Below are positions 1,651-54,091 of a DNA stretch of 64,000 nt, piece by piece. The notes under the pieces are model-generated. The model searched no databases, was not told where the DNA came from, and was given only the letters and a program-made list of their open reading frames with translations. The position numbers and the translations under genes were made by a program. The first letter of the stretch is position 1. Each line of letters begins with the position of its first letter. Source of the DNA: an uncultured Candidatus Saccharibacteria bacterium (GTDB taxonomy: Bacteria > Patescibacteriota > Minisyncoccia > Phycocordibacterales > UBA1006); the NCBI GenBank assembly GCA_964464735.1, contig CAYXKF010000003.1, positions 3,808 to 67,807 on the forward strand, given 5' to 3'.

Positions 1651-4506
1651 TTATCCGCTTAATCGTCCAACATAATCCTGAGGGGTCGCCCCATAAAAGT
1701 CGCGGCATTGAATATCTTCGCGGTTATCGCGATACAGTGTAAGGAAATACGGGTCGCTGTAATTCGGAAAGAATAAATCGGTATCAACGAATGGGTAAAT
1801 ACGCTCGTTCAACGCGGCACCATTATTGCCTCCGTTAGGGCTCATAAAGATACCGTTATTTATATTTTGAATATCCTGCGACGAAAGTCCCAATGCCTGC
1901 TGCGCGATTGAAGGTGCAAGTGCAACGGCGCTTGTTTGATCGCTCGTGACGTCGCGCAAATAACAGAAGTCTTGTTTAAGCACATATGCGACCGCAAACG
2001 GAAGGCGATATCCATCCCCCCATGCTGGGTCTCCTGGAGTCACCGGACTTGCTTTTGCTTTTACTTCGAGCTTACAAGTTTCGGTTAACGAATCAATATT
2101 CTCGATCTGCGCTTTTGCTTTTTCAAGGTCTTCAACGCGACGGTCAACGACTTGCTGTATCGGAAGATCAGCTCCGATCGCAAGATATTCGCGATAAAAC
2201 TTTGCTTTTTCGGCAGGCGTGGTTGCCGCATTCCATGAAAGGTATCGATTTGAAAGGTTATCAAGCCGTGCCATGACCTGACGGCGTTCGGCAAGAATAT
2301 TTTGAAGCTGGGCAAAGTCACTTTGCATACGCGGCGTCTGGTTTATCACATCAATGATACGCTGAGCACTTGGAATGCTCCAAAAAGTATTAAGCAAGTT
2401 TTCGCTGATCATTTGCTTAAGGACGCTGATCTGATACGGCGCATCTTCAATATGCTGACATGCCCAACCGTATAAGCTATTGTTTTTATCGCCCTCAGCC
2501 TTGCTTTCGCAAATAATGCGGGTGTTCTGGAATTTACGATCATATGCTTTATCAAGGCGATTTTGCCAACCGTAATCGGGTCCCGGCATGCATTGATCAA
2601 GCGTCTGCATTTTTTGAGGGAACAAGCGCAACGTGTCACGCTCTTCAGACAATATACCAACTTCGTCATGGATTAATTTGATGACGCCTGGTGAACCGCC
2701 AGCATCAGGATCAGTATTTCGCTTAAGCGAACCATCAGGATTTTTTTCGTATTGAATCTCACCATTGACCGTAATGATTACATTATTCGCATCACGCTGC
2801 GGGATGCGTGGTCCATAAAATGTTTCATCAATATCAAGTACGATGTCAGGCGTAACCGTAATATCGTTTGAACCTGTGTATTGCAATGACGATGGACCCG
2901 CTACACTTATGCCGTTTCCAAGATCATATGAAAACTCGTCGCTGTCGGTAAGCCCTTGGTGTATTGGATCATACCCTTCATTCGAGCTGTCGTTACCAAC
3001 TACCTGCCCAATTTTTGCTATACCTCCATTAGCCAAATCGGTAACGATTCGTGTTGCCCCGGCAACCAGCACTTCAGTATATTTGTCAGCCATATTAAGG
3101 CGTTCAGTTGGAGCCTTAATGGCATTTGAAAGCGTATCCTTAAGGATCTGCGCAGGAGTTTGAGTAATGCGCTGCTTGCACACCTGGGGCTTTTGTCCGC
3201 CTGATGGAATAATATCCGGCGCTGTTGGATTATTACCCCCGTCTATTGTAAATTGCTGGCCTGAATCAGGAGTTTGAGGAGCACCAGACCCACCGAAACT
3301 ACCACTATCCCAAAAGTTTCCTTGAGCACCTGAAGGGTTTAAGTTCAAACTGTTACCACTTCCTGATCCTCCACCACTCTGAGTGTTTGAAGTGTAGCAG
3401 ATACCCCCAAAGTAGCACCCATCATGACTATTGAGCCATGCCTGTGCCTGGTCTCGCACATACCGCGCATCCAAACATTGCTGATTTTCTTGCCCAACTA
3501 TAGCGCCCGCACAATGAATTCCGATCTGATTAAGCGCATCCTCAAGATCTTGGTTATGTGTCGCACAAGAAGAACAATAAGAAGGGAGCGGTGAACTTGA
3601 ACCACTTCCTGATCCCGAACCTCCTGAAAACGAGTCAGGTGTAAACTGTGACCCACCAGTATCCCAGTAATTACCTTGCGTGCCAGTTGGATTTGTTTCA
3701 ACCGTTTGATTATTTGCCGCGTTTTGGTAGTTTTGCACTTGTTGAATGTCTTGTTGGATTGCCTGCGCTTCATCTTCGGGGTCGCCCCACTCGATACATT
3801 TTTCTACGCCCAAAAATCCTTGCCCGACGTTAACCGCATACTGACGCTGCGATTGCACACTTGCAATATCTTTTGCAAGTTCTTCTTGCAAAAGCATTTG
3901 GCTTCCTAACAAGTTGTTTCCTGGATCTAAAAATGCGCGGTATCCTCCTTGCCCACCAACACTATAGTTACCCTCGGTAAAACTCTCCCATCCTGGGCCA
4001 AGCACCTTATCAAGTGTAAAAGGCGAGCCGGTCAGCGCGCCGCCGCGATTACGGAATGGAGACGCCAAGATAGCCATTTGCGCCATGCTGCGCGAATACG
4101 GACTGTTCATATATTCAAACTTTGAGACAACATAATCGTACCGTTGTAATGCGACATCGCGCAGGTCTTGACCAAGGTCTTGGATATAAAAAGGGTTTCC
4201 CTCGAAGCCGCTGTTTGCCCAACTACTGACGCTTTTTACAGCAAAGTTCATCAAAGTCGACGCAATTGCGTATCCAGCCGGATCAAGCACGTTATTGATG
4301 ATGTCATCTTTAATATCCTTTTGCGCCCCTGCTGTCGTAGCAACACCAGTAAGAATGTTTGGGACAAGATTTTGCGCGTCGATTGTCGGCGCGTCTGCAT
4401 GCACCTGATGCGCAAATACAAAAATACCCATAAGCACAACCACCATGGTTGCACCTGTAATTCTAGAAATGAGAGCGCGCTTCATACTGTGCCGATAGTG
4501 TACCAT
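1651..4506 (-). CDS. large secreted hypothetical protein (951 aa) with Gly/Ser-rich low-complexity segments
   Basis: N-terminal signal peptide (KRALISRITGATMVVVLMGIFVFAHQVHA). Internal GGSGSGSGSSSP and GGGSGSGN tracts and conserved Cys pairs. No recognisable catalytic motif. The alternative start MKRALIS is at 4485. Confidence 0.7.
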   Translation of the reverse strand: MVHYRHSMKRALISRITGATMVVVLMGIFVFAHQVHADAPTIDAQNLVPNILTGVATTAGAQKDIKDDIINNVLDPAGYAIASTLMNFAVKSVSSWANSGFEGNPFYIQDLGQDLRDVALQRYDYVVSKFEYMNSPYSRSMAQMAILASPFRNRGGALTGSPFTLDKVLGPGWESFTEGNYSVGGQGGYRAFLDPGNNLLGSQMLLQEELAKDIASVQSQRQYAVNVGQGFLGVEKCIEWGDPEDEAQAIQQDIQQVQNYQNAANNQTVETNPTGTQGNYWDTGGSQFTPDSFSGGSGSGSGSSSPLPSYCSSCATHNQDLEDALNQIGIHCAGAIVGQENQQCLDARYVRDQAQAWLNSHDGCYFGGICYTSNTQSGGGSGSGNSLNLNPSGAQGNFWDSGSFGGSGAPQTPDSGQQFTIDGGNNPTAPDIIPSGGQKPQVCKQRITQTPAQILKDTLSNAIKAPTERLNMADKYTEVLVAGATRIVTDLANGGIAKIGQVVGNDSSNEGYDPIHQGLTDSDEFSYDLGNGISVAGPSSLQYTGSNDITVTPDIVLDIDETFYGPRIPQRDANNVIITVNGEIQYEKNPDGSLKRNTDPDAGGSPGVIKLIHDEVGILSEERDTLRLFPQKMQTLDQCMPGPDYGWQNRLDKAYDRKFQNTRIICESKAEGDKNNSLYGWACQHIEDAPYQISVLKQMISENLLNTFWSIPSAQRIIDVINQTPRMQSDFAQLQNILAERRQVMARLDNLSNRYLSWNAATTPAEKAKFYREYLAIGADLPIQQVVDRRVEDLEKAKAQIENIDSLTETCKLEVKAKASPVTPGDPAWGDGYRLPFAVAYVLKQDFCYLRDVTSDQTSAVALAPSIAQQALGLSSQDIQNINNGIFMSPNGGNNGAALNERIYPFVDTDLFFPNYSDPYFLTLYRDNREDIQCRDFYGATPQDYVGRLSG

Positions 4507-4510
4507 ATTA

Positions 4511-5452
4511 TTATCGCAGTTTTAACAAAGCTCGTTTAAAGTCGTTAAGCGCTGTTTCAATCGCGTCGGCACGGTCTTCAAACTGGCTTACCGCCCTAAG
4601 CGCATACAGGGGTTGTTCCTCGACCTGTGCAAGACCATCAATAACCGTTACCTTAAATGCAATAAGCGTATTTACCAGCTGCAGATGCACCGCAATCATC
4701 GATTCGGGCACCGTGATATTGCGCAACTGATCAATCATGCGCCCGTATGGAATAGCGACTGAATCATGCAGCTCATCCGGCACATTACCCAATCGTGCAG
4801 CTTGAAACATTTCGGCGACTGCGGCAGGAATGATGTTATTTTTATGAATTTTAAAGAAATCATCGATCTGAAGCAGGTAGGTCTGGCGCACTGAAGCGTC
4901 GTCAGGCACCGTTTTAAGATCAGCCGCAGTGATGCCCGTATTTGGCACTTGGTTTACATATGCAATAAACACATCGGTAAGTTCGTCTTGGCGTGCAGGT
5001 GTAAGCTGGTCAGATTGTTCTAAATACGCAACTGCCGCATATAATTGGCGCTGAAAAAGTTCGCTTTCACTTTGCGGCGCAGTCATTTGCACCTCACCGC
5101 CAGATTGGTTTTTTAAAAACTGCTTGCGTTCCATGATAAATGCGCCATCAGAAATGCCGTCAGCGTCAGTATCCTTATTATTGGGATCAGTACCCCAAAG
5201 CGATTCCTCCCAATCAGCAATACCATCTTGATCGGCGTCGTTTCCAAATGCTTGTTCAAGCACAACGGCCGGCACAGCGGGAATATCTTTACCAAATTGT
5301 TTTGGCTGCTTTACATGCGTCTCTTTTCCAAAACGTTCAATAAGAAAAACTGCTAACAAAACAGCAATAACAATGCCAAGCGCGATGGCAACTTTTTTAC
5401 TCGGAAGCAGTGATCGTATGCGTTCACTAACCATGTTGCCCAAGTATAGCAC
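4511..5452 (-). CDS. membrane-anchored hypothetical protein with two Dx[DN]xDG calcium-binding-like motifs
   Basis: 313-aa ORF with an N-terminal TM helix (VAIALGIVIAVLLAVFLI). Contains DADQDGIADWEE and DKDTDADGISDG, which resemble thrombospondin-type-3 or EF-hand-like Ca-binding loops. Its stop is 5 nt from the next start. Confidence 0.6.
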   Translation of the reverse strand: MLYLGNMVSERIRSLLPSKKVAIALGIVIAVLLAVFLIERFGKETHVKQPKQFGKDIPAVPAVVLEQAFGNDADQDGIADWEESLWGTDPNNKDTDADGISDGAFIMERKQFLKNQSGGEVQMTAPQSESELFQRQLYAAVAYLEQSDQLTPARQDELTDVFIAYVNQVPNTGITAADLKTVPDDASVRQTYLLQIDDFFKIHKNNIIPAAVAEMFQAARLGNVPDELHDSVAIPYGRMIDQLRNITVPESMIAVHLQLVNTLIAFKVTVIDGLAQVEEQPLYALRAVSQFEDRADAIETALNDFKRALLKLR

Positions 5453-9086: not shown

Positions 9087-12000
9087 TTATTGTGAGCGCT
9101 TTTCAGCAATCTTATTGACCAAGCTCTCGACCCACTGGTGCACTGAAAAGTTTTCAGGATATGCCATAATGGATACTCCATATACTTCTTGTTCCATGAG
9201 GTGAATCTGCTGTTGCAACTTTTCCACCATTGGCATTTCACCCATAAAATCGTTTGTCATAAAATCACGAAGTGGCACATATGTCTGCTGGTCACCTGCG
9301 ACAACCTGATAAAAGTTCGCAACATTTTCAGCGCTGCGGCCTAGGGCCAAGACTGGCTCAAAGATTTTCTCGGCTAGAATGTCCCTGTGCTCAAGGGTCC
9401 TTTCACTAAAGACATCCGCAGCTGCTAGACGTTCGATCGCCTCTTGCGCACCACGGTGGAGATTTTCAGGCGTAACAAAGGCAGAAACAACTTCGTTAGG
9501 ATTGGTATTTGTCGCAGCATTTTCAACTGCTGCCGCTGTAAGATTTTGTGGCGCCTCTTGCTTAATAATGCCTTCAGTAGCATCAGTTTGAACTGTATCA
9601 GTTGCTGTATTTGCAACTCCTTCGGTTACATCTTGCGGCGCAGCTTCAATCGGTGTAGTTTGCGTAATCACTTCGGGTGTCGCGCTAACCGTCGACATGC
9701 CCGGCGGAATTTCTTGTTTGATGATGCCCTCGGTAGCATTTACCACATTTGATGCACCGACCGGCGCAACCTGGTCAATCAGCCTTCCGTCAGGCAACCG
9801 CTCGTCAACCGTACTGGTTCCCTGTGGTACCTCTTGCTTAATGAGCCCTTCGTTTACTGGAGGCACCGGCGTTTGCGGTAGCACGCCCATTTTCTGCAAG
9901 CGCGCATATTCTTCGGGTGAATAATTATCGCGTGATACGCTGTTAAAGTTACTGATCTGGTCTTTAGTCAAAGCGTCAGCATTTTGTGCCGAGCCACCTT
10001 TTGGATCCCAGTACAAGGTGTCTTCTGTGCCGCCAGTTCCATACGACGGTTCAATGCGAGGGGTCGATGCAGCTTGCGATACCCCTGCAGGACGAACTTG
10101 TTGGTTGCCTGTTTGCGAACCATTAGTATGAGTATGGGTTCCAGGATTTGCATGATTATGCGTTTGCGCCGCGCCTTGGCTCATCGAACCTTGTTGCAAA
10201 GGAGCCCCCGCAGCTGCAGCTGTCGCCCTTGCCTTTTCTTCGACAGCTTGTTGTGGAGCACTATAATGTTCAAAGGATTCAAGATCAGTGCGCAGCGGGA
10301 ACCCAAGCATGTTCGCAAGCATCGGCGCGCTGTAATTGTTCATTGTTGGCGGTTGGTAAAAACCAAACTTCGAATGAAATTCGTCCAAGAATTGCGGTGT
10401 CAATTTATTTTCGGCAGCGCGCGCCATCAATTCAAGCGTTACTGCTTTTTGCTCAAGCGACATCTTGCCTTCGGGATACTCCATGATTGTTTGAACAAAT
10501 GCTTTTACCGGGTCAATGGTTGCCTTATTTCCTCCTGCATACAAGTTTGCAAGGAATTTGTCCCCGAGGTCGCGGTCACCATGGAACCAATACGAAGCTA
10601 CAAAACCATGGTCGGTATTAATGCGATCGCGCAGCAATAGATTAAGCGCATTTAGTGCCGGCGAATTTGGACGCGACAAAAATCCAAGCATTTCGTTGTA
10701 ACGCGCATTGCCGGTAAAGTGCGGGAAGTCGACATTTTCAAGCGCTTTAGGATTTGGTGCAGTCGCTGCATTCGTATCAATATTCGTATTGCCACCATTT
10801 TGGCCGCCCGCAGCACCTGGCACTGTTTGTTCAATTAAACCACTGCCAACTTTTGATCCACCAACAGGAACTTGCTGATTACCACCAGTGTTTGTAGTTG
10901 GGTCACTAGGCGTCGTGGTACTGCTTCCTTGCGGAACTTCTTGTTTAATAATACCTTCGTTGTCATTTGGCCCTGCATCAGTATGCGTATCGCTTGGCGC
11001 GCCATCATAGCGATGGAAGTATTCGTGTTTTTCGATACCCGCGGCACCGCCTTCGGTATGCGAACCATCAAGCGTTTCGATGATGCCGCCCTTTGCGTCA
11101 TATTCGACCGAAGTCATGTCGCCGCTACCGTCAAGCTTAAGCACATAAGCGGCACCGACATTATAGGTGCGCACTTCGCCCTCGGGCGTAATGTATCCAA
11201 ATTTTTTCGCAAGCTCGACTGCTTCGTGTCGCGCAAAACTATGCAAGTCATCGCCCGGCTTGTAACCCAATGCAGCCTGTAGCTTAGGATCGTGTTCGAT
11301 CTGGCGCATAAAGGCATACGTAATACCGTCGTTCGGGCGGATTTTTGCCTCAATAGGGATGTCAGGATTAGCCGTTGTTTCAGGTGCTGCCGCTGGAGTT
11401 TTTGGTGCAGGTGATGTTTGGGTATCGTCTGCGCTTTCTTTTGCAGACGGTGCCGGTGTTTCTTGTTTGGCTTCATCAGCAGCCGGTGCTTGTTCGTCAT
11501 GCTTAGGCTGTGCATTTGCGTCACTTGGGTGTTCGGTTGCCGGCGCTTCGGTAGTTGCCGGGTGCGAGCCAAGGTCGACACCGGTTTTTACCTCATGTGC
11601 ACCATGTGATACAGTTGCAGTATCTTGATGACCAAAAAGCTTATCCAAAATTGCTTGCGAATTATTTGCTTGAGATGCAGGCGTACCAGTCGCAACGGTA
11701 TCGATATGTGGTTCTTGCATTGCAATCGTATCAACCGATGGGTTTTGACCCAAAGCAGCTGCAACAGTATCGCGCGACTGCTGTCCGGCTGCAGCCTTTA
11801 GACTATCTTGTGCAGATACACCCCCATTAGTTTGATTACCGTGTTGAGCAACCGTGTCAGTCGAAGGCACGTGCACTTCTTCTTCGACACCCGTGAACGG
11901 ATTTCGAAAATGAATAACGTCCGAGATACCCTTCATAAGAGGCTGCATGTTCTTTGCCTGCTCTTTAAGTATTTCTTGCCCAGTGTCGGTGTGTTCAAGA

Positions 12001-31694: not shown

Positions 31695-32723
31695 TTATTG
31701 TACGCGCATTACGATTTGTGGCAACAAAAAAAGCCTCGCTTGTAGCGAAGGCTTTGTACCGGGTTTTTCCGGCCTTAGTTTATCTTTCTTCTTTTTTTCT
31801 TTATTAGGTGGGCAGCACTTAAAGTATGTGGTTATTATGACCCCATCATCATAGTAATCAATACGTCGGCGCTCTTTGCCTTTTTCTTTTTTCAGGATTT
31901 CTATTATGACATCCCGGCCAGGCATTTTATCGGAACTAAGTCTGTATATGTGCGAGTTCGTATCAGATCTTTCAACCTTATACTTACTTAGGTTGCTCTC
32001 ACACAGCAAGGATTGGGCTAAATTATTTGTTTGTGCTGGGCCGTGGTAAAACGCCCAAGAAAGAGCAGTAAGAACTACCTTCCACTCTTTTTTTCTTTTC
32101 GCTTTGTGTTTTATATCTACATTCTTAAAAAACTTCATCTTCTGCTTTACGTCTAACGTGACTGGTGTACCAGACTTGGCAACAAGGGTCAGCAGGCAAG
32201 ATGAGCTTAAAGCATCACTCACCGTATCGGTTAAACTTATCAGCGTAGAAACTGTAGTAGAAGTAGTATCAGCAGCAACTGGCGCTGCAAAAGTATTCTT
32301 AGAAGGCGCAATATTTACGCTTTTTTCGTTACAGGCAGGGCAAGCAATATCAGAAGTTGCAGTTTTCAGGGTCGGACAGGCAGTTTTCAGGTCATGGGTC
32401 AGCACTTTCTGAGTGCAAGAATAAATCATTTGGTCACCAGATGAGGCAGTAAATACTATTTCCTTAGTTTCAGTATCATACGAAAGGATTTCGCCGGGTT
32501 TTACCAGCATTGCACTATCAGTAACATTGCGCTTGGCAAAGTGCATGCCAAACACAATTTGGTAGGTGCCAAACGGAGATCCATACCCCGCCTCGGCAAC
32601 CGTTTTTTGCAAGCAAGCTATTTTACAGCTTGCTGCGTCACCTCTTTCAAAGGTAACCGAAATTACCTCTGATTTTGCCGCCATCGTAATTACGATGAAC
32701 AACAATAAGAATAACTGTTTCAT
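31695..32723 (-). CDS. secreted hypothetical protein (342 aa) with Lys-rich C-terminus
   Basis: Signal peptide MKQLFLLLFIVITMAAKSEV. No catalytic motif. The C-terminus is a KKEKKKKDK tail. A promoter TTGTCT-16-TATAAT lies upstream. Confidence 0.6.
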   Translation of the reverse strand: MKQLFLLLFIVITMAAKSEVISVTFERGDAASCKIACLQKTVAEAGYGSPFGTYQIVFGMHFAKRNVTDSAMLVKPGEILSYDTETKEIVFTASSGDQMIYSCTQKVLTHDLKTACPTLKTATSDIACPACNEKSVNIAPSKNTFAAPVAADTTSTTVSTLISLTDTVSDALSSSCLLTLVAKSGTPVTLDVKQKMKFFKNVDIKHKAKRKKEWKVVLTALSWAFYHGPAQTNNLAQSLLCESNLSKYKVERSDTNSHIYRLSSDKMPGRDVIIEILKKEKGKERRRIDYYDDGVIITTYFKCCPPNKEKKKKDKLRPEKPGTKPSLQARLFLLPQIVMRVQ

Positions 32724-32891
32724 GAACTAAACAATTTAAAATTAACAATGAACGTGTTTTTAGGTTGCTGGTATTATACCATATCTATATAAAAAGACAA
32801 GTCCTTGCTGGTTTTTGCATTGCTCATGTGTTGCAGGGTATAATAACTACCTGAAAGCATCTTTTATTTTTTCTACCCAAAACTTAACGCA

Positions 32892-42074: not shown

Positions 42075-42103
42075 TTGACAAATGGTATATAAAATGCTAT
42101 AAT
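42075..42103 (+). promoter_or_regulatory. perfect consensus sigma70 promoter TTGACA-17-TATAAT
   Basis: TTGACAaatggtatataaaatgcTATAAT upstream of the lipoprotein gene. Followed by a 16-bp hairpin leader (42130-42178). Confidence 0.65.
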
Positions 42104-42247
42104 GTATGCAGAAATACGTTGACATAGCAGACTCCGGCAAAGAGGCTTTTACGCGCTAAAACCTTCTTTGCCGGAGTCAAAACATCGCCATATTGGCGAA
42201 ATCCGGCAATTTGTAAACCCTTTCATAACAAAAAAAACAGGAACAAA

Positions 42248-43027
42248 ATGAAAAAAGGAAACCTTTTCACTCTGATGCTGACCATATTGGTAGCCACATT
42301 TTTAACAACAAGCTGCGGCAACAACTGCGATGAGCTGAACAGCCAGATCGCTCAACTGCAACAAGACACAACGAATTTGCGTGCAGCACTTAACGAAGCT
42401 CCTACAAAGGCCATTGAGGCCTATAAAGAAGAGCAACAAAGGCTTGCCGACTCAGCCGCGGCATCAGCTGAAGCACTTGGATTAAATTTAATTAAGTTGG
42501 AAAGTATCACAAAAAAAATTGACCCCTACGCCATATCAGCATTACGCGCTGAGGATCAGTTTCAATACCTGGGAAGTAGCGTTGCAAATTTTTTAGGAAG
42601 CTCAGAAGCTGATCTGAAAGTGCTCCTAAGTAATCCGGCAATTATCAGCGCTGTATTTAATGCAAACAAGGATGTATTACCACAGGTGCTAGATAAAACG
42701 GGATTAAGACCCGCGGCCCAAAGATGGACGGCAATTTTGCTACCGTACCTTAACGGTACCAGCAAAAACATTCAAATATTCAACGCATTCTATGCGAAGT
42801 ATGGAAATTACAAGGAAGATTTAGGAGACTACTCTTACTCTACAATTCCGCGCAATACAGAAGAATGGGCCAAAATGGAAGCCTCTACAGGGCTGGATCG
42901 CGCCAGATTAAATAATGAATACTGGGCGTATCTATGCGCAAAAAGACTTACCGATCCAAAATGGGGTGGATCTGCTGCCCTAAACGCAGAAATAGTAAAA
43001 ATACTAACCGTTGTTAAGGCCTCCTAG
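42248..43027 (+). CDS. lipoprotein, hypothetical (259 aa)
   Basis: The signal peptide has a lipobox (LTTSC). Preceded by a perfect TTGACA-17-TATAAT promoter, a structured leader of about 140 nt, and an AGGA Shine-Dalgarno. Confidence 0.7.
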   Translation: MKKGNLFTLMLTILVATFLTTSCGNNCDELNSQIAQLQQDTTNLRAALNEAPTKAIEAYKEEQQRLADSAAASAEALGLNLIKLESITKKIDPYAISALRAEDQFQYLGSSVANFLGSSEADLKVLLSNPAIISAVFNANKDVLPQVLDKTGLRPAAQRWTAILLPYLNGTSKNIQIFNAFYAKYGNYKEDLGDYSYSTIPRNTEEWAKMEASTGLDRARLNNEYWAYLCAKRLTDPKWGGSAALNAEIVKILTVVKAS

Positions 43028-45424: not shown

Positions 45425-48415
45425 ATGGCAACTTCGGCAAACTTTGAATCAGCATACAAGCAACTAAACGCTGCGCAAAAAAAGGTAGTCGACACGATCG
45501 ACGGTCCAGTTATGGTCATTGCGGGCCCTGGAACCGGTAAAACGCAAGTATTGGCAATTCGCATTGCAAACATTTTACAAAAAACCGACACTCCAGCCGG
45601 CGGTATTTTATGCCTTACGTTTACCAATTCGGGCGTTCGTGCAATGCAACAACGATTGCGTACTTACATTGGCAGCAGCGCGTCGCGCGTCGTCATAAAC
45701 ACATTTCATAGTTTTGGAATGAATCTGCTTGAGGAATTTTATACGTACTTGGATTTTGCAGCGCCACCGATTTTGATTGACGATATTCAGTCGGTCGCAT
45801 TGTGTGACGAAATTTTACACCAAGGCAACTGGAAACACATTCGCAGCCGCGCAAATCCAGCACTATACTTTAACGACATCAAATCGCTGGTGTCATTACT
45901 CAAGCGCGAACGTATAACACCCGACGCGTTTTTGATCGAAATTGTAAACGAGATACATCAAATCGAACAGAACCCAGACAATATTTCGAGCCGCGGCGCA
46001 ACCAAGGGGCAACTCAAACAAGATGCTCAAAAAAATATTGAATCGCTTGAGCGCACGAAGGAACTGGTAACATTTTACGAAACGTACGAAACACTAAAAA
46101 AGGAAAGGGGGTTGCTGGATTACGACGACGTGCTTGAAAGCATCGTGCGATTGGTCGAAACATCAGACGACGTGCGCGACACGATTCGCGAACGTTATTT
46201 ATACGTATTGGTCGACGAGCACCAAGATTCAAGCGGGGTGCAAAACGAATTTTTGGCGCGAGTATGGGGCGGCATCGAAAAGCCCAACGTTTTTGTGGTA
46301 GGGGACGACCGCCAGCTGATTTACGGATTCGGCGGTGCATCACTTTCGTACTTTGAAGGCTTTAAGACCATGTTTGGCGGCGTGCAATTATTTACACTGA
46401 CCGACAATTACCGATCGACCCAAAGCATTTTAGATTCGGCCGAAGAACTATTAAAAAGCTCGCTTGCCGACGCAAAACTTGCGGGAAAAAAGGGTGGCGA
46501 AAAAATTCAACTAGTCGAATGCGACTATCCTCGTGACGAAATTATTATGGCCGGTCTTGCGATTAAGCAAAAAATTGCCGCTGGCATCGATGCAAACGAC
46601 TGCGCAATACTGGTTCCCAAAAACGCGCAAGTAAAAAATGCCGTTCGCGTATTGCAAGACATGGGCCTTGAAGTTTCGGCAAACAACGGCACAAAATTAT
46701 TTGCACTTTCAGAAACGCAATCACTGTTGCAAGTGCTGCATGCAATAAACGACAGCGCAAACAGTACGTACTTGGTTGGAACGTTGCTTGACCCACTATC
46801 GGGCATCAATCCCATCGAAGCGCACGAATATCTTGCCGGCATACGGGCATCAACCATAACCCTTGCAAAACTAGGCGACGTAAAAGAAAAAAGTATTAGC
46901 GCGTGGGCCAAAAAGTTGCACACATGGGTAAGTTTGATGATGCAAACTGACGTATACGGGCTAATTCAGCGCATTGGTGACGAACTATTGCTGCAAACTG
47001 CTACTGATCATGAAGCATTAATCAAACGCGTCGAAATTGTGCGCACGATGCTGCATTTAGTACTTTCGAGCCAAGAGAAATCGGCCAGTAACCGCACATT
47101 AACGCTTAGTGAATTTTTAGCATTCATTGCACGGCTTGAATCGTATGCAAGCGACGTAAACTTGGCCGTATTTGCAGCCGACAAGGGCGTAAAAGTAATG
47201 ACCCTGCACGCATCAAAGGGCCTTGAATTTGATGTTGTATGGATCGCACACGCCGACGAACGCAGCCTTGCCGGCAAGCATGCATCCGCATTTACACTTC
47301 CACAATCGATCAAGACGCGCGTCGAGGAAAAAGACGAACTGACCACCAAGCGCCAATTGTATGTGGCCATTACGCGCGCAAAACGCTTTTGCAGTATTTC
47401 GTACGCACGCCACAACCATACCGGCGCCGACCAAACGCTTGCCTCGATAATTAGCGATTTGCCCACTGATACGTTTGAAACAAAAACCCTTTCGGATTCA
47501 GAAAGTATTATTAAAGAACACGACATTACCGCATACGTAACATCCAAACCAGCAGGCAAAAACGAAGACATGCTTGGCGAATTGGTTGAACTAGTAAAAG
47601 ACCAATACGTTAAGCGAAACGTATCGGTTTCGGCACTCAATAACTTTTTTGAATGCCCGTGGAAATGGTATTTTCGTAATATGCTGTGCCTGCCCGAGAT
47701 CGAAACACCAAGTTTGATATTTGGAAACATCGTCCATAGCGCAATCGAAGACATGCTAAAACACAACACTGTTCCTAGCATTGAAACATTGCGAAGCATC
47801 ATTAACGCACGCACAGAAAAAATTATTGGTATCAATGATGCCGCATTAGCCCAAATGGCAAACGAAGCATTAGATATTTTATCGCGCTGGAGCGAAACAC
47901 GTTTGGCTGACATTGCACCTGAACGTCAAAGCGAATTTCCGTTTTACAATTTTCACGACCCCGAATTTGAGCACCTAAAAATTACCGGCAAAATAGACTT
48001 GCTTGAAAAAATCGATGACGCAACCGCGCGCGTAACCGACTTTAAGACCGGAAAGGCGCGCACTAAAAATGAAATCGAGAAAATCGATGATGAAGGGCGC
48101 ATGTCGGATTACCTTCGCCAACTTGCGATGTATTCGTACCTGCTTTCGGGCAAAAGCAACGACACGATTTCGGTAAACGAATCACGCCTTGAATTTATCG
48201 AAGCAGAACCAGAAAGCAAAAATGCCTTATATGCGACGCACATCACCGACGAGCAAATTCAAATGCTTAAAGATGACATTCGCACGTTTGACCACATGCT
48301 TAAAGAGGGAACTTGGATTAACCGCCCATGCAACTTTAAACCGTACGGAAAGACGGATGCCGAATGTGACTATTGCCGGCTATCAAAAATATACACAAAA
48401 GAACACCGTAAATAG
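45425..48415 (+). CDS. UvrD-family helicase fused to C-terminal PD-(D/E)xK (RecB-like) nuclease domain (AddA-like)
   Basis: Walker A AGPGTGKTQVL and DEHQDSS motif II. The C-terminus has a nuclease motif (GKIDLLEKIDDATARVTDFKTGK ... QLAMYSYLL) and a Cys cluster (C..C.....C.YC). A TTGAAA-16-TACAAT promoter ends 6 nt before the ATG. Confidence 0.85.
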   Translation: MATSANFESAYKQLNAAQKKVVDTIDGPVMVIAGPGTGKTQVLAIRIANILQKTDTPAGGILCLTFTNSGVRAMQQRLRTYIGSSASRVVINTFHSFGMNLLEEFYTYLDFAAPPILIDDIQSVALCDEILHQGNWKHIRSRANPALYFNDIKSLVSLLKRERITPDAFLIEIVNEIHQIEQNPDNISSRGATKGQLKQDAQKNIESLERTKELVTFYETYETLKKERGLLDYDDVLESIVRLVETSDDVRDTIRERYLYVLVDEHQDSSGVQNEFLARVWGGIEKPNVFVVGDDRQLIYGFGGASLSYFEGFKTMFGGVQLFTLTDNYRSTQSILDSAEELLKSSLADAKLAGKKGGEKIQLVECDYPRDEIIMAGLAIKQKIAAGIDANDCAILVPKNAQVKNAVRVLQDMGLEVSANNGTKLFALSETQSLLQVLHAINDSANSTYLVGTLLDPLSGINPIEAHEYLAGIRASTITLAKLGDVKEKSISAWAKKLHTWVSLMMQTDVYGLIQRIGDELLLQTATDHEALIKRVEIVRTMLHLVLSSQEKSASNRTLTLSEFLAFIARLESYASDVNLAVFAADKGVKVMTLHASKGLEFDVVWIAHADERSLAGKHASAFTLPQSIKTRVEEKDELTTKRQLYVAITRAKRFCSISYARHNHTGADQTLASIISDLPTDTFETKTLSDSESIIKEHDITAYVTSKPAGKNEDMLGELVELVKDQYVKRNVSVSALNNFFECPWKWYFRNMLCLPEIETPSLIFGNIVHSAIEDMLKHNTVPSIETLRSIINARTEKIIGINDAALAQMANEALDILSRWSETRLADIAPERQSEFPFYNFHDPEFEHLKITGKIDLLEKIDDATARVTDFKTGKARTKNEIEKIDDEGRMSDYLRQLAMYSYLLSGKSNDTISVNESRLEFIEAEPESKNALYATHITDEQIQMLKDDIRTFDHMLKEGTWINRPCNFKPYGKTDAECDYCRLSKIYTKEHRK

Positions 48416-48453: not shown

Positions 48454-50403
48454 ATGAAGCACGAACATGTGCACCAAAACCCTGATAAGGAATCTGCCGA
48501 TAATTATGCAAACGCACAGCATGCTCTTTTTACGAACATAAAAAACAAAATCGAGGGATACAAAGAGTCGAAGCCACTAAGCGGCACTGAACTGCAAATG
48601 TATATATTTGAACTTTGCAACGCAATCGGTAATAACGAACGTGAATGGACGATGCTATACAATACGATTATCACTATTGCTGACGAACATCCGGTCGAGG
48701 CTGGATACATGCTTGATGCAGTCGGACAAAACGGCCAGATGATTCCTAAAGGCGAGTATGCAAAAGGCATGGCGAAGCTTTTTGCTCGGCCCTGCTCACT
48801 AAACAGCAGCATATATACCCATGCAGTATCGGGCATGAATTACATCAATTCGTTCTACCCTGATTACGATAAAGCATGTGTTGAGCTTCTGGATTTTACC
48901 CATGAAGAGAAATTCGCTGAAACTGCAGGCATGCTGTTATTTTTAAATCGCCTTGCGTCATATTCAAAAGGGTGGAGTTTTTCAAAGCATACTACTAATC
49001 GCCTAGAAACAATGCTTGCCAACACTGTCGCTGACCAAAAAGAAAATTATCTGCTTGGATTATACGCAACGATGCTCCATGATCGCCTTGAGAGAAAAGA
49101 AAAAATACCGTTTAATGCTCCATTCATCCTATTACCAGACACGTACGCATATGTTTTTGACGATGGGCTTTATATCGCACGCCCCGAAGACAAAAAAGCA
49201 ATCGAGGAACTTGCGCAAAAAATAGCCACCCCACATAAAGATTTTGATGATATCCGTCAACAGCATTTTCAGGTGCGGCAAGATGCGCACCAGCTTGAGA
49301 AACTGCTTCACCACACAAAAGTCACACCCGAAGCATTTGGTCTAGGCAACAAGAAGGCTTTTGCAGACAGCACATACTTTAATTATCTAACAATTCTTCA
49401 GCAGCCAAAATTACGCGATGCACTTATGCATGATTTTCACGTCGAACTGCCCGACCTGACCCTTCCCGAACAACTGCAGTTGATAAACTATATTGCATCA
49501 GTTCCAAAATACGAAGTATCCTCGGTAGGTAAAAAACTTGATATTTATGGATTGCCGATGATGCGTTCGTTTTTATCGGTCATTCATGGCGGTAAGGCGG
49601 CTCGTAAATCAATTATGGCTATTACCGATAATTTTTCTGAACCTGATGCAAAAATTCTATTCGAAAAGTACTCTTCGCTTGTATCAATAGCACAAGACAT
49701 CGCAGTTGAGGTGCAAAAAATTATTCCCAATCACGCCAGTATAGATAGCGCAAAGGTGCAAGACGCATTACTGGTTCGCGGAAAAGATCTTATCTTAAAA
49801 GCAGTGGAAACTTTGGATAAGTCAGCGCTTGAGGCACGTCTTGATCGATTTAAAGAAGAATTGATCCTAGCAAGTGAGGTGTATAAAAACCTTGCAGCGG
49901 CTGGCACAAAAATACACCCCGAAGATATCAAAGGAATGACCATTAACATTCTCGGCAAGGACGAGCGCCTAAATGTATCAAGCACCTTGTGGGCAATCAA
50001 TAAGATGAACCGACCATTTATCGAAGAGAGGGACGAGATTGCTTTGCGCGAGATACGATTTGAAAAAACACTGAACGATGAAAACACCGTATGGTACGCC
50101 CTTAAACACAACAGCCAAATAACCGCATTTTGCAGTTTTGAGCCCCAAGCCGATGGCACCTTATTAGTTGAGTCATTAAATGTCGAAACCGAGATCAAGG
50201 GAAACAAACTGGGAGGAGATTTTTTCAAGACCATCATTGAAAAATTAGGACGGGAAAAGACGATTATCGGCTATGTTCATTTTAAAAACCGCACCACCAT
50301 TCCATTTTACGAATCCCTAGGCTTTATTTCAGAACCTATCACCAAAGACGGTAAGCCAGTATATAAAATCACACGGATTACTGATTCTCAGAAACATTCA
50401 TAG
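48454..50403 (+). CDS. hypothetical protein (649 aa) with C-terminal GNAT-like acetyltransferase fold
   Basis: The C-terminal 130 aa (ITAFCSFEPQADGTLLVESLNV...GNKLGGDFFKTIIEKL...FYESLGF) has the GNAT beta-strand and FYxxxGF pattern. The N-terminal 500 aa is unrecognised. Lies 38 nt downstream of the helicase-nuclease. Confidence 0.6.
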   Translation: MKHEHVHQNPDKESADNYANAQHALFTNIKNKIEGYKESKPLSGTELQMYIFELCNAIGNNEREWTMLYNTIITIADEHPVEAGYMLDAVGQNGQMIPKGEYAKGMAKLFARPCSLNSSIYTHAVSGMNYINSFYPDYDKACVELLDFTHEEKFAETAGMLLFLNRLASYSKGWSFSKHTTNRLETMLANTVADQKENYLLGLYATMLHDRLERKEKIPFNAPFILLPDTYAYVFDDGLYIARPEDKKAIEELAQKIATPHKDFDDIRQQHFQVRQDAHQLEKLLHHTKVTPEAFGLGNKKAFADSTYFNYLTILQQPKLRDALMHDFHVELPDLTLPEQLQLINYIASVPKYEVSSVGKKLDIYGLPMMRSFLSVIHGGKAARKSIMAITDNFSEPDAKILFEKYSSLVSIAQDIAVEVQKIIPNHASIDSAKVQDALLVRGKDLILKAVETLDKSALEARLDRFKEELILASEVYKNLAAAGTKIHPEDIKGMTINILGKDERLNVSSTLWAINKMNRPFIEERDEIALREIRFEKTLNDENTVWYALKHNSQITAFCSFEPQADGTLLVESLNVETEIKGNKLGGDFFKTIIEKLGREKTIIGYVHFKNRTTIPFYESLGFISEPITKDGKPVYKITRITDSQKHS

Positions 50404-51151
50404 CATTGCTCCACAGGGCTTCAAAAATTATGCGATGCGTTTCATAAAGCAATGCGTCTTCAACAATGAACGCAATCGAGCGATCATCAAGGGTAAAGTA
50501 GCTGATCTTGTTGTCATAGATCTGAATCACAGTACCGAAATCATTTTCCGCCTTAATGACACGTCGTACAGTAAAATCAGGGTCATCATGTTGGGCCAAA
50601 TTGCGAATATACGGCGTGTCGCGCGAAATGATACGCCGCTTGATACCTGACTTTTTTCGCTTAAGTACTTGCGTCTGATTAAGCTCGTGATACTTTGCAT
50701 TCATGCGTTCATTGTCGGCGATCGTAAGAATTTCAGTAGCCGACGTTAAGCAATCTTCCATTGCCTTTCTGACACCAGCCTCGCCTTCGTAAAATTGCAC
50801 GTTAGGCTTGCCGGCAATCAGATTGTATTTCGAAGCAAAACTTCCCAACGCAAAGGTAAGCGTTTCTTTTGCCAGCGCAACTTCTTTTTCTTTGCGTTCA
50901 ATCAAGTCAATAAGCGCATGAGGATGGGATGGAAAAAACGTTGCCACCGTACCCTTTGCGCCTTTTTTCTGCACCAGTCCCATCGCCTCAAGTTGTTCAA
51001 GTACTTTATAGGTCAACCCGCGCTTTATGCCAACCCATTGCGACAGGGCACTGGCCCGCTGAGGTCCCCTATCTAAAAGTGCTTGGTATATAAGGGCTTG
51101 TTCTTGTGACAACCCTGCTTGGATTAATAGGTTTTCATCGTTTTTCTGCAT
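50378..51151 (-). CDS. TrmB-family transcriptional regulator
   Basis: N-terminal HTH (GLSQEQALIYQALLDRGPQRASALSQWVGIKRGLTYKVLEQLEAMGLV) and a C-terminal TrmB-type effector domain. A TTGTAT-17-TATGAT promoter ends 6 nt before the ATG. Confidence 0.8.
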   Translation of the reverse strand: MQKNDENLLIQAGLSQEQALIYQALLDRGPQRASALSQWVGIKRGLTYKVLEQLEAMGLVQKKGAKGTVATFFPSHPHALIDLIERKEKEVALAKETLTFALGSFASKYNLIAGKPNVQFYEGEAGVRKAMEDCLTSATEILTIADNERMNAKYHELNQTQVLKRKKSGIKRRIISRDTPYIRNLAQHDDPDFTVRRVIKAENDFGTVIQIYDNKISYFTLDDRSIAFIVEDALLYETHRIIFEALWSNAMNVSENQ

Positions 51152-51157
51152 AAAATT

Positions 51158-51186
51158 ATCATAGCATTTTCTTCTTTGTTATACAA
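51158..51186 (-). promoter_or_regulatory. promoter TTGTAT-17-TATGAT of the trmB-like regulator, leaderless
   Basis: The -10 ends 6 nt before the ATG at 51151. Divergent from the 51264 promoter. Confidence 0.55.
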
Positions 51187-51263
51187 CTATGACAATATCT
51201 GTATATAAAAACACTTATACAATAATGTTTCTTGGTACTTATTAGATTTTTGGTCATAGGTTA

Positions 51264-51292
51264 TTGACAATCGGTAAAATAGATGCTATACT
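51264..51292 (+). promoter_or_regulatory. near-consensus sigma70 promoter TTGACA-17-TATACT
   Basis: TTGACAatcggtaaaatagatgcTATACT. The nearest downstream annotated start (51953) is 660 nt away, and a strong terminator hairpin sits at 51576-51616. Confidence 0.6.
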
Positions 51293-51575
51293 ACACTCAA
51301 GCTAAGATTTATAAAAATACTGCACGCGAAGGAACCGAAAGGAGATTGGCGGCAATCATGTGCGCCAGTGCATGCAGTTGGTCATTGAAAATCAATAGTC
51401 GCATAGATCAGAAAGTATTTGTGATCTCTGCAACCCCTATAAGCAAAGCTTGTAGGGAAAAATAAACCTATCGGTTGGTGTATGAGTTCCTTCAGGATGG
51501 CCTGAACCAAGGAGTAAGGACCATGCCAAGCCATAAACGGCTTTCAAGGGAATATGCCTCCGATAGGCCAAAATC

Positions 51576-51616
51576 GTGGCAACGCAAAAAATCGCGTTGC
51601 CACTCTTATTCGAATT
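51576..51616 (+). terminator. intrinsic terminator-like hairpin (10-bp perfect stem GTGGCAACGC/GCGTTGCCAC) followed by a U-rich tract
   Basis: Stem at 51576-51585 and 51594-51603 with loop aaaaaatc, followed by tcttattcgaatt. Lies about 310 nt downstream of the 51264 promoter. Confidence 0.6.
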
Positions 51617-51952
51617 ACAAACGAAAGTTTGCAGTTCGATAGGAGATTTCTATACCTAAAAAGAAATTAGAATAAACCCACGGGGATGGAGTCCGAGTGG
51701 AATTTGGCAGGGTTTTAAGAAACCCTTGCTATTGTGGTAGTGCGCAACCACACGATTGTCGGGGTCGTTAAACCGCTCTATGTTTGTAAACAGAAAAATT
51801 ACATGGTTTTGCCGAAAGCAAGCGGATGACGCAGCTTAAGGACGCTATACGTAGCGGAAATCACGAAATACCCGCTGGTGGGTAAAGTAGAGGCTATCCA
51901 ATTCAGACGGTTTGTTAGTTTTCCGTAAAAACTAATATTTTTTCTTTCACCA

Positions 51953-52945
51953 ATGCACGGTTTGCTTCCGTGGGTAAAGAAGAGCGAAAAAATGGAAGAA
52001 GTTAAAGAAGTTTACGAAGTACCCTACAAGTCTGAAGGATACTGCTCAAACAACGGCAACGTGAGCAACAGGAGCTCACGAAGTTACATTCCTATTGCCC
52101 GAATGGGTAATGGGGACAGGTGGTTCATGCCTCTAGAAGAGGCGTGTAGCTATTCAGGCGCAAACGGCTGGAACCGAAAAAACTTCGGTGAACCGGCAAA
52201 GTTTATTCCTCAAATAAAAGTTGTTGAGGAAAAAATATACGGCACGTGCGGTGCCGATTATAAAACTTCGGGAGTAAGAAAAGCGCAAGAACAAGCGCTT
52301 TTTACCCAATCTAACCAAGAGCAGTTTTGGGGGAGCACAAAAACTTGGCTCAGGTGGACAGGAGAGCCGTTGTCAAATGAAATTGCAGAAATGTTCGACG
52401 GGCTTTACACCCCCGCAACGGGTGGAAACCCCGTTCACGAAATACAATTAGGGTGTTCCGAATGGGACACCAATTCATGGTCTACAGGGTGGACGTGTTC
52501 TGCCCTTAAGTGTTTTTGCCAAGAGAAGAATTGGACCGAGTGGAGCATGTCCACATGGTTCAAGGTATTCGAATTGGCCCACAAAGCCAATTTCGGCGAG
52601 TTCCTAAAGACCAAAATTGTTGCAAGCGAAAGCTATCGCAACAGTTTGGGGCAAAATCGTCCGACCACGTACTGGTCACACGATGAAAAGTTTTGGGCAA
52701 TCTGGTCGCATTGCGACCACGATCCAGATACTTTTAAAAAGTTCTGGAAAAATAGGCCGACAAACTCGGCCTTGGCTCAAATCTACACTGCCGCCGTAGC
52801 CAAGCATGGCTATAAAGCGGTAAAAAATGCGCTACTGAAGCGCAAAAAATTGAAAGAAATACTGAACCTGCCATCTGCATGGATGGCAGTTATACACAAA
52901 CAAGCGGAATTTATTCCTCTTGAAATGATAGGCATTGCTGCCTAA
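51953..52945 (+). CDS. Trp-rich, Cys-containing hypothetical protein (330 aa)
   Basis: About 18 Trp and about 10 Cys with no signal peptide and no recognisable domain. Preceded by about 660 nt of structured non-coding sequence and followed by a strong hairpin terminator. Confidence 0.55.
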   Translation: MHGLLPWVKKSEKMEEVKEVYEVPYKSEGYCSNNGNVSNRSSRSYIPIARMGNGDRWFMPLEEACSYSGANGWNRKNFGEPAKFIPQIKVVEEKIYGTCGADYKTSGVRKAQEQALFTQSNQEQFWGSTKTWLRWTGEPLSNEIAEMFDGLYTPATGGNPVHEIQLGCSEWDTNSWSTGWTCSALKCFCQEKNWTEWSMSTWFKVFELAHKANFGEFLKTKIVASESYRNSLGQNRPTTYWSHDEKFWAIWSHCDHDPDTFKKFWKNRPTNSALAQIYTAAVAKHGYKAVKNALLKRKKLKEILNLPSAWMAVIHKQAEFIPLEMIGIAA

Positions 52946-53172
52946 TCATAAACCAGCCTTTTGATGGCAAGAGGGGACAACTGGTGATTGCCATTACTGC
53001 ATGAATTTTAGGCAGTAACTACAACCAAATAAAAAAACAACGGAGGAGCTCAAAGAGTTCCTCCACTTTATTCGGTTTATCATTGGCCTGCCATGAGCAA
53101 AGTCGAATGGTAAATCGATAGGGAACGCTGAAAACCTAGAAACGAGTAAGCAAAAAATTAAATAAAAAAAGG

Positions 53173-53655
53173 ATGGCTAAGAATTATCCTGTAAAAATTG
53201 CCCGCGTAGGCAATGAACTCTGGGTACAATACGAGGTACTTGGAGAAAATCTGCCCGGTAAGGCGGATTTTCATTATCTTTTTATCACAGAAGGAGGCAA
53301 CAATCCTTCGTGGAAAAAAGTCCGCGATGCCGACGCGGAAGATCGGAAAAGGATTAAAAACTTGCATTTCATCGAAGGTGAAATGCCCAGAGAGGCACTG
53401 GTGTCTTTTTGGAAGGAAGGAATGGACAGATTTGTCTCTCAAAGAGACGAGCATTGTCCAAAGACTCACCAGTTTTTGGGTGAGTTAAGTTACGACTCTC
53501 TTAAAGACAAATTCGTCGTAGAAGTCTACGGCGAAACATGGTTCGGCTACCCCGGAGCAACGGGCGCCGAATATTACGAAGATCACCAAACTCGTAAAGA
53601 AGAGTTTGATGATCTGCCAGACGTGCTGTTGCACGGTCGGTGGGACTGGCGATAA
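53173..53655 (+). CDS. hypothetical protein (160 aa)
   Basis: Clean ORF with an AAAGGA-like Shine-Dalgarno immediately upstream. No homology recognised. Followed by about 430 nt of non-coding sequence. Confidence 0.5.
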   Translation: MAKNYPVKIARVGNELWVQYEVLGENLPGKADFHYLFITEGGNNPSWKKVRDADAEDRKRIKNLHFIEGEMPREALVSFWKEGMDRFVSQRDEHCPKTHQFLGELSYDSLKDKFVVEVYGETWFGYPGATGAEYYEDHQTRKEEFDDLPDVLLHGRWDWR

Positions 53656-54091
53656 TAAATCCTATCCTTGGGATATCAAGGTTGCCAAAGTCGGTAATGG
53701 GACTGCGGCTTAAAAATACAAGGAAGTTCGCGTAGGCGAATGAGCTGTCATTACATGCAGAGAAGAAACTTCTCGGGTTATCTTCTGCATCAACAACGAA
53801 GGACTTGCTGTCCCGAGACACGTCATAATCCAGGCAAGCTGTTGTCTTATAGCTTCGACGACCTGGTACGTACTGCGGTTATATCGGCTTAGCATGAAAA
53901 TGCTAACAACCGGTACAGGCACAGAGAAAAGTGAAGAAAAAATTGAATATTGTGAGTAAATGACTTTGTGCCAAGGTAAAATAACCTTGGCCTCTGTTCT
54001 TTCAGTATCACGCTGTGATAAAGAAAGTGATCAGAGAATTACACAATACGGCACCTACAAAAAACAAAAGCGCACTGATATACTTATGTTT

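Follow-up and report, generated by a model that had tools for sequence, protein, structure and literature searches.

The longest gap free of open reading frames (ORFs) in the 64-kb window (the whole stretch of DNA analysed here), the tRNA cluster excepted, lies between a trmB-like gene on the minus strand and the next ORF on the plus strand (51152-51952). Its 801 bases contain no ORF supported by a protein family, and an initial annotation of the same DNA was right to call it the longest non-coding stretch of the window, save for that cluster. What does the gap encode? The answer that we prefer, and rate somewhat better than even, is a structured 5' leader of 650-690 nt that opens a hyperstructured cargo transcription unit of about 2.7 kb, divergent from the trmB-like gene. 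The unit would comprise the leader, a gene for a Trp/Cys-rich protein of 317 or 330 aa and a 160-aa ORF; its transcript would run from about 51299 to a terminator-like hairpin at 53970-53991, with both ORFs co-transcribed from a promoter at 51264.

The leader RNA (51293-51991, plus strand) is non-coding and densely folded. Over 51293-51955, the plus strand has a minimum free energy (MFE) of -214.6 kcal/mol, with z = -7.9 against dinucleotide shuffles (z = -5.5 for the minus strand), and sub-windows reach z = -8.5 (51401-51600, 200 nt) and z = -9.7 (51401-51620, 220 nt). Nor does the folding end where the coding sequence begins. In a sliding scan of folding z over positions 1-59800 (59.8 kb), the only contiguous run of strong folding was found at about 51400-54000; elsewhere there were isolated peaks, and the trmB-like gene stood at a z of about 0. 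Twelve of the thirteen 200-nt bins in 51401-54000 have z between -2.6 and -7.2 and one has -1.5, and in every bin the plus strand is more stable than the minus strand. The hyperstructured block (about 51320-53995, plus strand) takes in the leader, the two ORFs and the spacers, with a terminator-like hairpin after the first ORF (53042-53064, plus strand), and ends at the hairpin at 53970-53991 on the same strand, just upstream of msrB; both hairpins were found by a terminator scan. Isolated bins with z of -5 to -6.6 lie inside long ORFs (11401-11600 and 46001-46200) and across the 3' end of an ORF (32601-32800).

The coding parts of the block were compared with synonymous-codon shuffles, which keep the protein and the codon usage. 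The mRNA of the 317-codon ORF folds at -353.9 kcal/mol, against -267.3 +/- 7.9 kcal/mol in the shuffles (z = -11.0), and the hyperstructured 160-codon ORF (53173-53655, plus strand), for which neither a homolog nor a Pfam match was found, gave z = -11.5. Four control genes of the window ranged from -2.0 to +1.9. The leader and the ORFs are folded beyond chance, strand-specifically, through synonymous codon choice.

Is this a peculiarity of one gene? For comparison, 48 related Paceibacteria (candidate phyla radiation) loci from species-representative genomes were fetched by alignment of TrmB homologs, and further contigs were added; fetched loci are referred to by L numbers. Most relatives carry, in place of the window leader, a canonical RNA that is described below. 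In dinucleotide-shuffle z-profiles of 14 such loci, over-folding extends over most or all of the 1.4 to 4 kb available on the RNA side, with bins commonly at -3 to -10 and extremes of -23 (L013 is weakest, and L057 is milder, down to -5.6). The trmB side stands at about 0 in nearly all of them (three bins in L025 reach -5 to -6). All six cargo ORFs tested, from four canonical loci and with a MoxR ATPase and a vWA protein among them, have z between -5 and -14 relative to synonymous shuffles, compared to -0.5 to -1.6 for the trmB genes of these loci. Hairpins with GNRA tetraloops number 54 on the transcript strand of the 14 loci, about four times the background rate, and 19 on the opposite strand. 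Most of the cargo ORFs are orphans that fall into small families; when ten cargo proteins were searched against Pfam, the only matches were to a MoxR AAA ATPase, a weak vWA domain and zinc ribbons. The folding is therefore under selection in the RNA. It is tied to the strand that the conserved promoter transcribes, and it characterizes this type of locus and not a single gene. The cargo of L009 and L015 (ORFs of 357 and about 460 aa) encodes a MoxR-type AAA ATPase and a vWA protein, with mRNA z of -5.0 and -8.5; the Pfam name of the MoxR domain derives from "MoxR-vWA-beta-propeller ternary systems". Such ternary systems have been proposed as conflict systems.

The promoter on which the unit would depend was correctly recognized by the initial annotation as near-consensus (TTGACA-17-TATACT). 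It is an extended -10 promoter, TTGACA-N14-TGC-TATACT (51264-51292, plus strand), which matches the consensus at 11 of 12 positions, with a TG extension and a 17-nt spacer, and from which transcription is predicted to start at about 51299. Only two such extended promoters occur in the 64 kb, where 0.04 would be expected by chance. The sequence TTGACA-N14-TGN-TATACTA is found in 31 of the 48 species-representative loci, oriented divergently to trmB at a distance of about 115-150 nt upstream, and the window promoter has the same distance and orientation. The first cargo ORF of the same orientation follows the promoter after 450-700 ORF-free nt in the relatives and after about 690 in the window. 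Thus, the promoter and its position are conserved across Paceibacteria, a bacterial class. Since a promoter scan found no second promoter-like site on the plus strand between 51293 and the downstream ORF, that ORF appears to depend on the 51264 promoter, and the intervening 650-690 nt would be its 5' untranslated region.

The only other extended promoter of this kind in the window is a perfect one (TTGACA-N14-TGC-TATAAT, 12 of 12), within 42075-42247. It is followed by a 140-nt leader with a long perfect hairpin (GACTCCGGCAAAGAGG...CCTTCTTTGCCGGAGTC; z = -8.0 in its 200-nt bin) and no Rfam match, which precedes the gene for a 259-aa protein with a hydrophobic N-terminus (42248-43027). Among the relatives, L010 has two copies of the conserved promoter on one 8.7-kb locus (72-101 and 3849-3878), and the first of these is accompanied by the beginning of the canonical 5' domain (nhmmer match at 11-65), so that a second copy of the locus may lie nearby.

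The gene that the leader precedes (51953-52945, plus strand) encodes 330 aa from its first ATG but probably 317 aa from the ATG at 51992, because alignments with its homologs start at Met14; with this later start, the gap grows to about 840 nt. An exhaustive HMMER search of 1.84 billion representatives found two remote homologs of the protein, P0123 (34% identity, E 4e-40) and P0124 (30% identity, E 2e-10). The ORF is therefore a real gene, and its product is Trp/Cys-rich, as the initial annotation had it, but not strictly an orphan. Structure prediction for the 317-aa protein was unusable (mean pLDDT 41). P0124 is encoded in L060 and L061, two copies of one sequence from a 423-kb contig. The layout of L061 matches that of the window: a TrmB-like gene on the minus strand, 715 non-coding bases and then the homolog. 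The L061 TrmB is only 23% identical to that of the window. L061 is the only other locus with this gene family that was available as DNA, so the comparison of leaders rests on two sequences.

The two leaders share a domain (51690-51950, plus strand) as a series of collinear blocks. These are, in order, GGGATG-AGTC; a hairpin at 51706-51729 that contains GGTTTTAAGAAACC; a hairpin at 51733-51752; GTCGGG; TTAAACCGC (51768-51776); CAGAA, AAATTAC, GCCGAA, GGTGGnTAA and CCAATT; and then a hairpin with a tail before the ORF. In the hairpin at 51706-51729, a bulged U is kept and one C-G pair is changed to U-A, a compensatory change; the hairpin at 51733-51752 keeps its position in L061 with an unrelated sequence. 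The last element in the window is an AU-rich hairpin, TTAGTTTT-CCGTA-AAAACTAA followed by TATTTTTTCTTTCAC (51915-51950, plus strand), directly 5' of the ORF. Its equivalent in L061 is a G+C-rich hairpin at about 4919-4963 followed by TATTTTTCTCTTCAC, in a region that extends to about 4978, and the tail TATTTTTYYYTTCAC before the ORF is common to both. Both leaders thus place a hairpin and a U-run directly 5' of the ORF, as expected of an attenuation leader. The chain statistic for the window against L061 was reached by 5 of 1000 shuffles (p about 0.005), and a 14-nt shared word was equalled by at least 1 of 200 shuffles (the largest shuffled value being 14).

The shared motifs are absent from the other 58 fetched loci, and L061 has no counterpart to the first 400 nt of the window leader, in which the 51576 hairpin and the 35-codon ORF discussed below are located. 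An RNA-pattern scan of metagenome contigs found no further leaders of the window type, a protein-based scan found no further loci of this type, and viral contigs gave no match to either the window-type leader or the canonical RNA. With moderate confidence, the 3' 250 nt of the leader appears to travel with the Trp/Cys-rich gene family. The large regulatory leader that the initial annotation had put forward as one possibility is supported both by this recurrence in L061 and by the sole promoter 5' of the ORF. Conservation in relatives, which the same annotation had named as a check, turned out to be partial: the promoter is kept and the 3' 250 nt resembles the L061 leader, but the RNA sequence of most relatives differs. 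The only other public copy of the window sequence is a 2,065-bp contig of Logan run SRR11567520 (L001), identical over 51740-53804; both of its ends lie inside the hyperstructured unit.

Within the leader, the further hairpins that had been singled out earlier (AGGGTTT-TAAG-AAACCCT, CGCTA-TACG-TAGCG and the AU-rich stem plus U6 at 51915-51945) are all present in the MFE fold. The leader belongs to no known RNA family. Rfam 15 holds 4227 families, and membership was taken as a covariance-model score at or above the gathering threshold of the family. By this measure, cmscan of the window called only three tRNAs, elsewhere in the window, and a search of 51100-52000 at E <= 10 returned noise alone (best E 1.5). 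RNase P, tmRNA, signal recognition particle (SRP) RNA, 6S RNA, riboswitches, OLE, GOLLD, ROOL, raiA, HEARO and others are thereby rejected, in agreement with the original failure to place the sequence in a known family.

The canonical trmB-divergent RNA of the relatives, about 450-650 nt long, is a genuine structured RNA with covarying helices, and in most relatives it is followed by variable cargo genes. An nhmmer profile built from 20 copies matches 33 of the 48 loci at E <= 2e-10. In a 27-copy alignment, its 5' domain has 40 pairs in seven helices, two of which are pseudoknots; 89.6% of cells are paired, compared to 33-44% with slid partners, both sides change in 28 pairs, and the observed values were not reached in any of 500 shuffles. 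The elements of this domain include the helices AGAUUG/CAAUCU and CACCUCU/AGAGAGUG and the pseudoknots GGCACCUAGGCCGGUAAGCUAGG and GUUUGC/GCAAAC. The 3' domain has three further covarying hairpins, with a UUAACCC loop in one hairpin and GAGGAG loops in others, and a UUUGAMAAnAAAAUA end, after which more conserved hairpins follow. A pairing proposed by RNAalifold, of the 5' CUCU with a 3' loop, was replaced by the covarying CACCUCU/AGAGAGUG helix. The 5' CACCUCU could pair with either of two GAGGAGAGAG motifs (A2 columns 119-122, 200-212, 637-648), and the choice between the central, covarying motif and the near-identical one in the 3' loop, which RNAalifold preferred, may reflect an alternative conformation.

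The canonical RNA is modular. Its 5' domain is absent from L012, L020 and L024 and is replaced by a variant domain in L026, L034, L046, L051 and L056, and the whole RNA is lost from L010, L011 and L022. Because domains or the entire RNA are missing from several genomes, it is not an essential housekeeping RNA. A disguised RNase P or tmRNA can be dismissed, since the RNA lacks their conserved elements and is dispensable in several genomes. A protein sponge of the CsrB/RsmZ type, with repeated GGAGAGAG, was likewise rejected: the central GGAGAGAGUG is paired with CACCUCU in a helix (helix 2) that is 94.7% paired and has compensatory changes. A partial sponge role is possible, given two further GGA motifs in hairpin loops. 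In 31 related loci, cmscan found no match of the canonical RNA to any Rfam 15 family, and a literature search turned up neither a description of such an RNA nor a connection between TrmB and Patescibacteria. Other RNA motifs were seen in these loci. Hammerhead-like cores (CTGATGAGTCTGAAARGACGAAA) occur at about 3100-3250 in L052 and L053, on the RNA side of trmB and upstream of distant trmB homologs, with no Rfam call at the gathering threshold; Rfam does call DUF3800-IX RNAs at L052 300-368 and L053 4-68. The DUF805b RNA motif (RF02914) is found at L010 8706-8740 and L012 2110-2144, the L012 copy being on the transcript strand in hyperstructured cargo.

The window itself does not have the canonical RNA. 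There is no nhmmer profile match and no BLAST match, and the best match to a covariance model of the 3' domain (R1, filters off) scores 8.9 bits (E 0.31) and overlaps the promoter. Neither the helices and pseudoknots of the 5' domain nor the elements of the 3' domain are found, and membership of the window leader in the canonical family is not supported. The window would thus be a variant of the locus, in which the canonical RNA is missing and a cargo-specific leader stands in its place. Could the leader instead be a true ortholog of the canonical RNA, of the same ancestry and function, that has diverged beyond recognition? We consider this improbable. The promoter and position are the same, the length is similar, the first 15 or so transcribed bases resemble those of the family (CAAGCTAAG versus CAAGAGTTAAG), look-alikes of family motifs (AAGGAGAT, GGTCATTGAAAA) are scattered through the window leader, a window hairpin (GCATAGATCAGAAAG..TTTGTGATCTCTGC) has 10- and 11-nt words in common with a family hairpin, and the family is tolerant of losing whole domains (L012, L020, L024 and L056). 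However, the look-alikes are in a different order, a 10-nt word match would be expected by chance about one time in four by our own estimate, and the window leader lacks the invariant TAACCC loop, the sequences of the pseudoknots and the UUUGAMAAnAAAAUA end. Furthermore, loci with a TrmB 58-63% identical to that of the window still carry the canonical RNA.

Another possibility is that the hairpin density is a feature of the DNA, as in a single-stranded DNA mobile element, a cassette array or a recombination hot spot, and that the leader is an island junction. The cargo 3' of the conserved promoter does differ from genome to genome and consists mostly of orphans, one of its families is a MoxR-vWA pair, and z is negative on the minus strand as well. 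On the other hand, the greater stability of the plus strand in every bin of the block and the roughly threefold enrichment of GNRA-tetraloop hairpins on the transcript strand only argue for RNA, and no integrase, transposase, repeat family, attC-like spacing or viral-contig match was seen. A DNA-level explanation is therefore given only a slim chance.

The initial annotation had also proposed a discrete small RNA (sRNA) of about 315 nt, transcribed from the 51264 promoter to the hairpin at 51576-51616; the rest of the gap would then be a separate element. The hairpin exists as described, a perfect 10-bp G+C-rich stem with seven G-C pairs (51576-51603, plus strand) and a T-rich tail (TCTTATTCGA, to 51616), and the terminator scan lists it as terminator-like; 51401-51620 is also the most stably folded part of the leader (z of -8.5 to -9.7). 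However, the tail is a poor U-tract, UCUUAUU (UCUUAUUCGA), and terminator-like hairpins are in threefold excess in the 4 kb from 50000 to 54000 (15 versus 4.9 expected), so this one carries little weight as a terminator. In addition, the folding continues unbroken beyond 51616, the 5' half of the leader is not conserved in L061, and an sRNA would leave the ORF with no promoter of its own. An independent sRNA is consequently unlikely, and the hairpin is possibly a partial terminator or stabilizer. Least probable of all, in our view very unlikely, is that small proteins, one or several, are encoded in the gap, for example the 35-aa Cys-containing peptide noted initially, and that the folding of the gap is incidental. 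ORFs of 35-60 codons are present, and AGGAGA does precede the ATG at 51358. But the 35-codon ORF is an internal part of a 60-codon ORF whose outer ATG (51283) lies inside the -10 hexamer region, the peptide has no family match, its ATG falls within a predicted helix, and the half of the leader that contains it is not shared with L061. A distance of 12 nt between Shine-Dalgarno sequence and ATG is long for a ribosome-binding site. Nor do the relatives maintain a reading frame at the equivalent AGGAGAU...AUG: L015, L019 and L038 have lost the ATG, and the codons that follow it change non-conservatively.

Several observations weigh against the long leader and its transcription unit. The transcription start, the co-transcription and the 3' ends are all deduced from sequence. 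The homology of the leader rests on one other sequence and is of moderate significance (local-alignment z = 2.2, chain p about 0.005), and in L061 itself the consensus promoter is missing and the over-folding of the ORF is mild (z = -3.2). As a terminator, the AU-rich stem at 51915-51935 is weak, and the U-rich tail after it could serve translation initiation instead.

How would such a leader work? Its hairpins would modulate read-through and/or RNA stability and protect the 5' end, the candidates being those at 51576-51616 and 51915-51950. The latter, which combines a good U-run with a weak AU stem, would be the better supported as the acting hairpin; the 51576 hairpin may give rise to a shorter by-product, and nothing singles it out. 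The global folding would presumably make the transcript long-lived or poorly accessible. Control at the DNA level would fall to the TrmB-like protein, which would bind a palindrome and control the divergent promoters. A candidate operator, TTGTTAT-ACAACT-ATGACAA (51176-51195, strand-neutral), was read from the sequence next to the trmB-like gene, and one half of it is also the -35 element of the trmB promoter (a promoter-like TTGTCA on the minus strand at 51195). The related TTGTCAT-N6-ATGACAA is found beside the trmB start at the equivalent position in L002, L054 and L056, and as a variant in L057. It is plausible that the TrmB-like protein binds the palindrome and thereby controls one or both promoters.

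The trmB-like gene (50378-51151, minus strand; 257 aa), the divergent partner of the leader, had rightly been assigned to the TrmB family. Its product has an N-terminal winged-helix TrmB domain (PF01978) that scores 42.5 bits against a Pfam cut-off of 25.6 (E 5.8e-11); the sugar-binding domain that archaeal TrmB has at its C-terminus was not detected in it. The protein has more than 200 homologs, and those with source names are all from metagenome-assembled genomes of Patescibacteria or Paceibacteria, which places the window in a Patescibacteria genome of the Paceibacteria/Nomurabacteria-like kind. The gene converges on one for a protein of 500-650 aa with a C-terminal GNAT acetyltransferase domain, the 3' ends overlapping by a few codons, and this gene pair (48454-51151 in the window) is conserved in the relatives L002 and L057.

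Among known systems, the window leader would work most like an attenuation-type 5' leader (riboswitches, T-box leaders and protein-dependent attenuators), unusually long and outside the catalogued families. Like these, it has a promoter far 5' of the ORF, a conserved structured domain and a hairpin with a U-run directly before the ORF, kept in L061 with a different stem sequence. Unlike them, it matches none of the 4227 Rfam families, and its folding runs on through the coding regions. Its 650-690 nt is two to five times the usual length of an attenuation leader. The canonical RNA of the relatives, on the other hand, resembles the ornate RNAs OLE, GOLLD, ROOL and the raiA motif in size, conservation, covarying helices and pseudoknots. 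It differs from them in having no cmscan match to any, in being confined to Paceibacteria as far as sampled, in always being divergent from a trmB-like gene with variable genes after it, and in the dispensability of whole domains.

Excess folding energy over kilobases of coding sequence is known as genome-scale ordered RNA structure (GORS) in some RNA viruses. The window block is similarly over-folded relative to shuffled controls across kilobases, within coding constraints, but it is one transcription unit of a bacterial chromosomal locus, with no replicase, capsid, viral hallmark or viral-contig match. Variable genes at a fixed site, or after a structured RNA, are found in islands by tRNA or tmRNA genes and with the EAR and put antitermination leaders. 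As in those, a conserved structured RNA at a fixed site is followed here by variable genes, often orphans or members of conflict systems, without obvious promoters of their own; in contrast to them, no integrase or direct repeats were seen, and there is no Rfam similarity to EAR or put.

Taken further, and tentatively, the findings may point to an undescribed type of Paceibacteria locus, in which a trmB-like gene faces a consensus promoter, a large pseudoknotted head RNA and exchangeable cargo, with cargo mRNAs that synonymous codon choice folds as strongly as the genomes of structured RNA viruses. In the window, the head RNA would have been swapped for a cargo-specific leader. The transcripts of such loci would be built to persist or to serve a function as RNA, for instance by being stored, exported or protected from ribonucleases in conflict with hosts or phages, and processing, antitermination or packaging would be the means by which the head RNA acts on the transcript as a whole. 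If this reading holds, the canonical RNA, which most of the sampled Paceibacteria carry and which is missing from Rfam 15 and from the literature searched, is a candidate for a new class of large bacterial RNAs with pseudoknots. The cargo may be the clearest bacterial case known to us of selection for mRNA structure over whole coding regions, and since the folding is confined to one conserved locus, it can be compared directly with that of neighboring genes. For organisms that are almost entirely uncultured, the reading makes testable predictions about transcript ends, half-lives, structure probing and TrmB binding. It also implies that "orphan" genes and long gaps beside trmB-like genes in such genomes should not be dismissed as noise.

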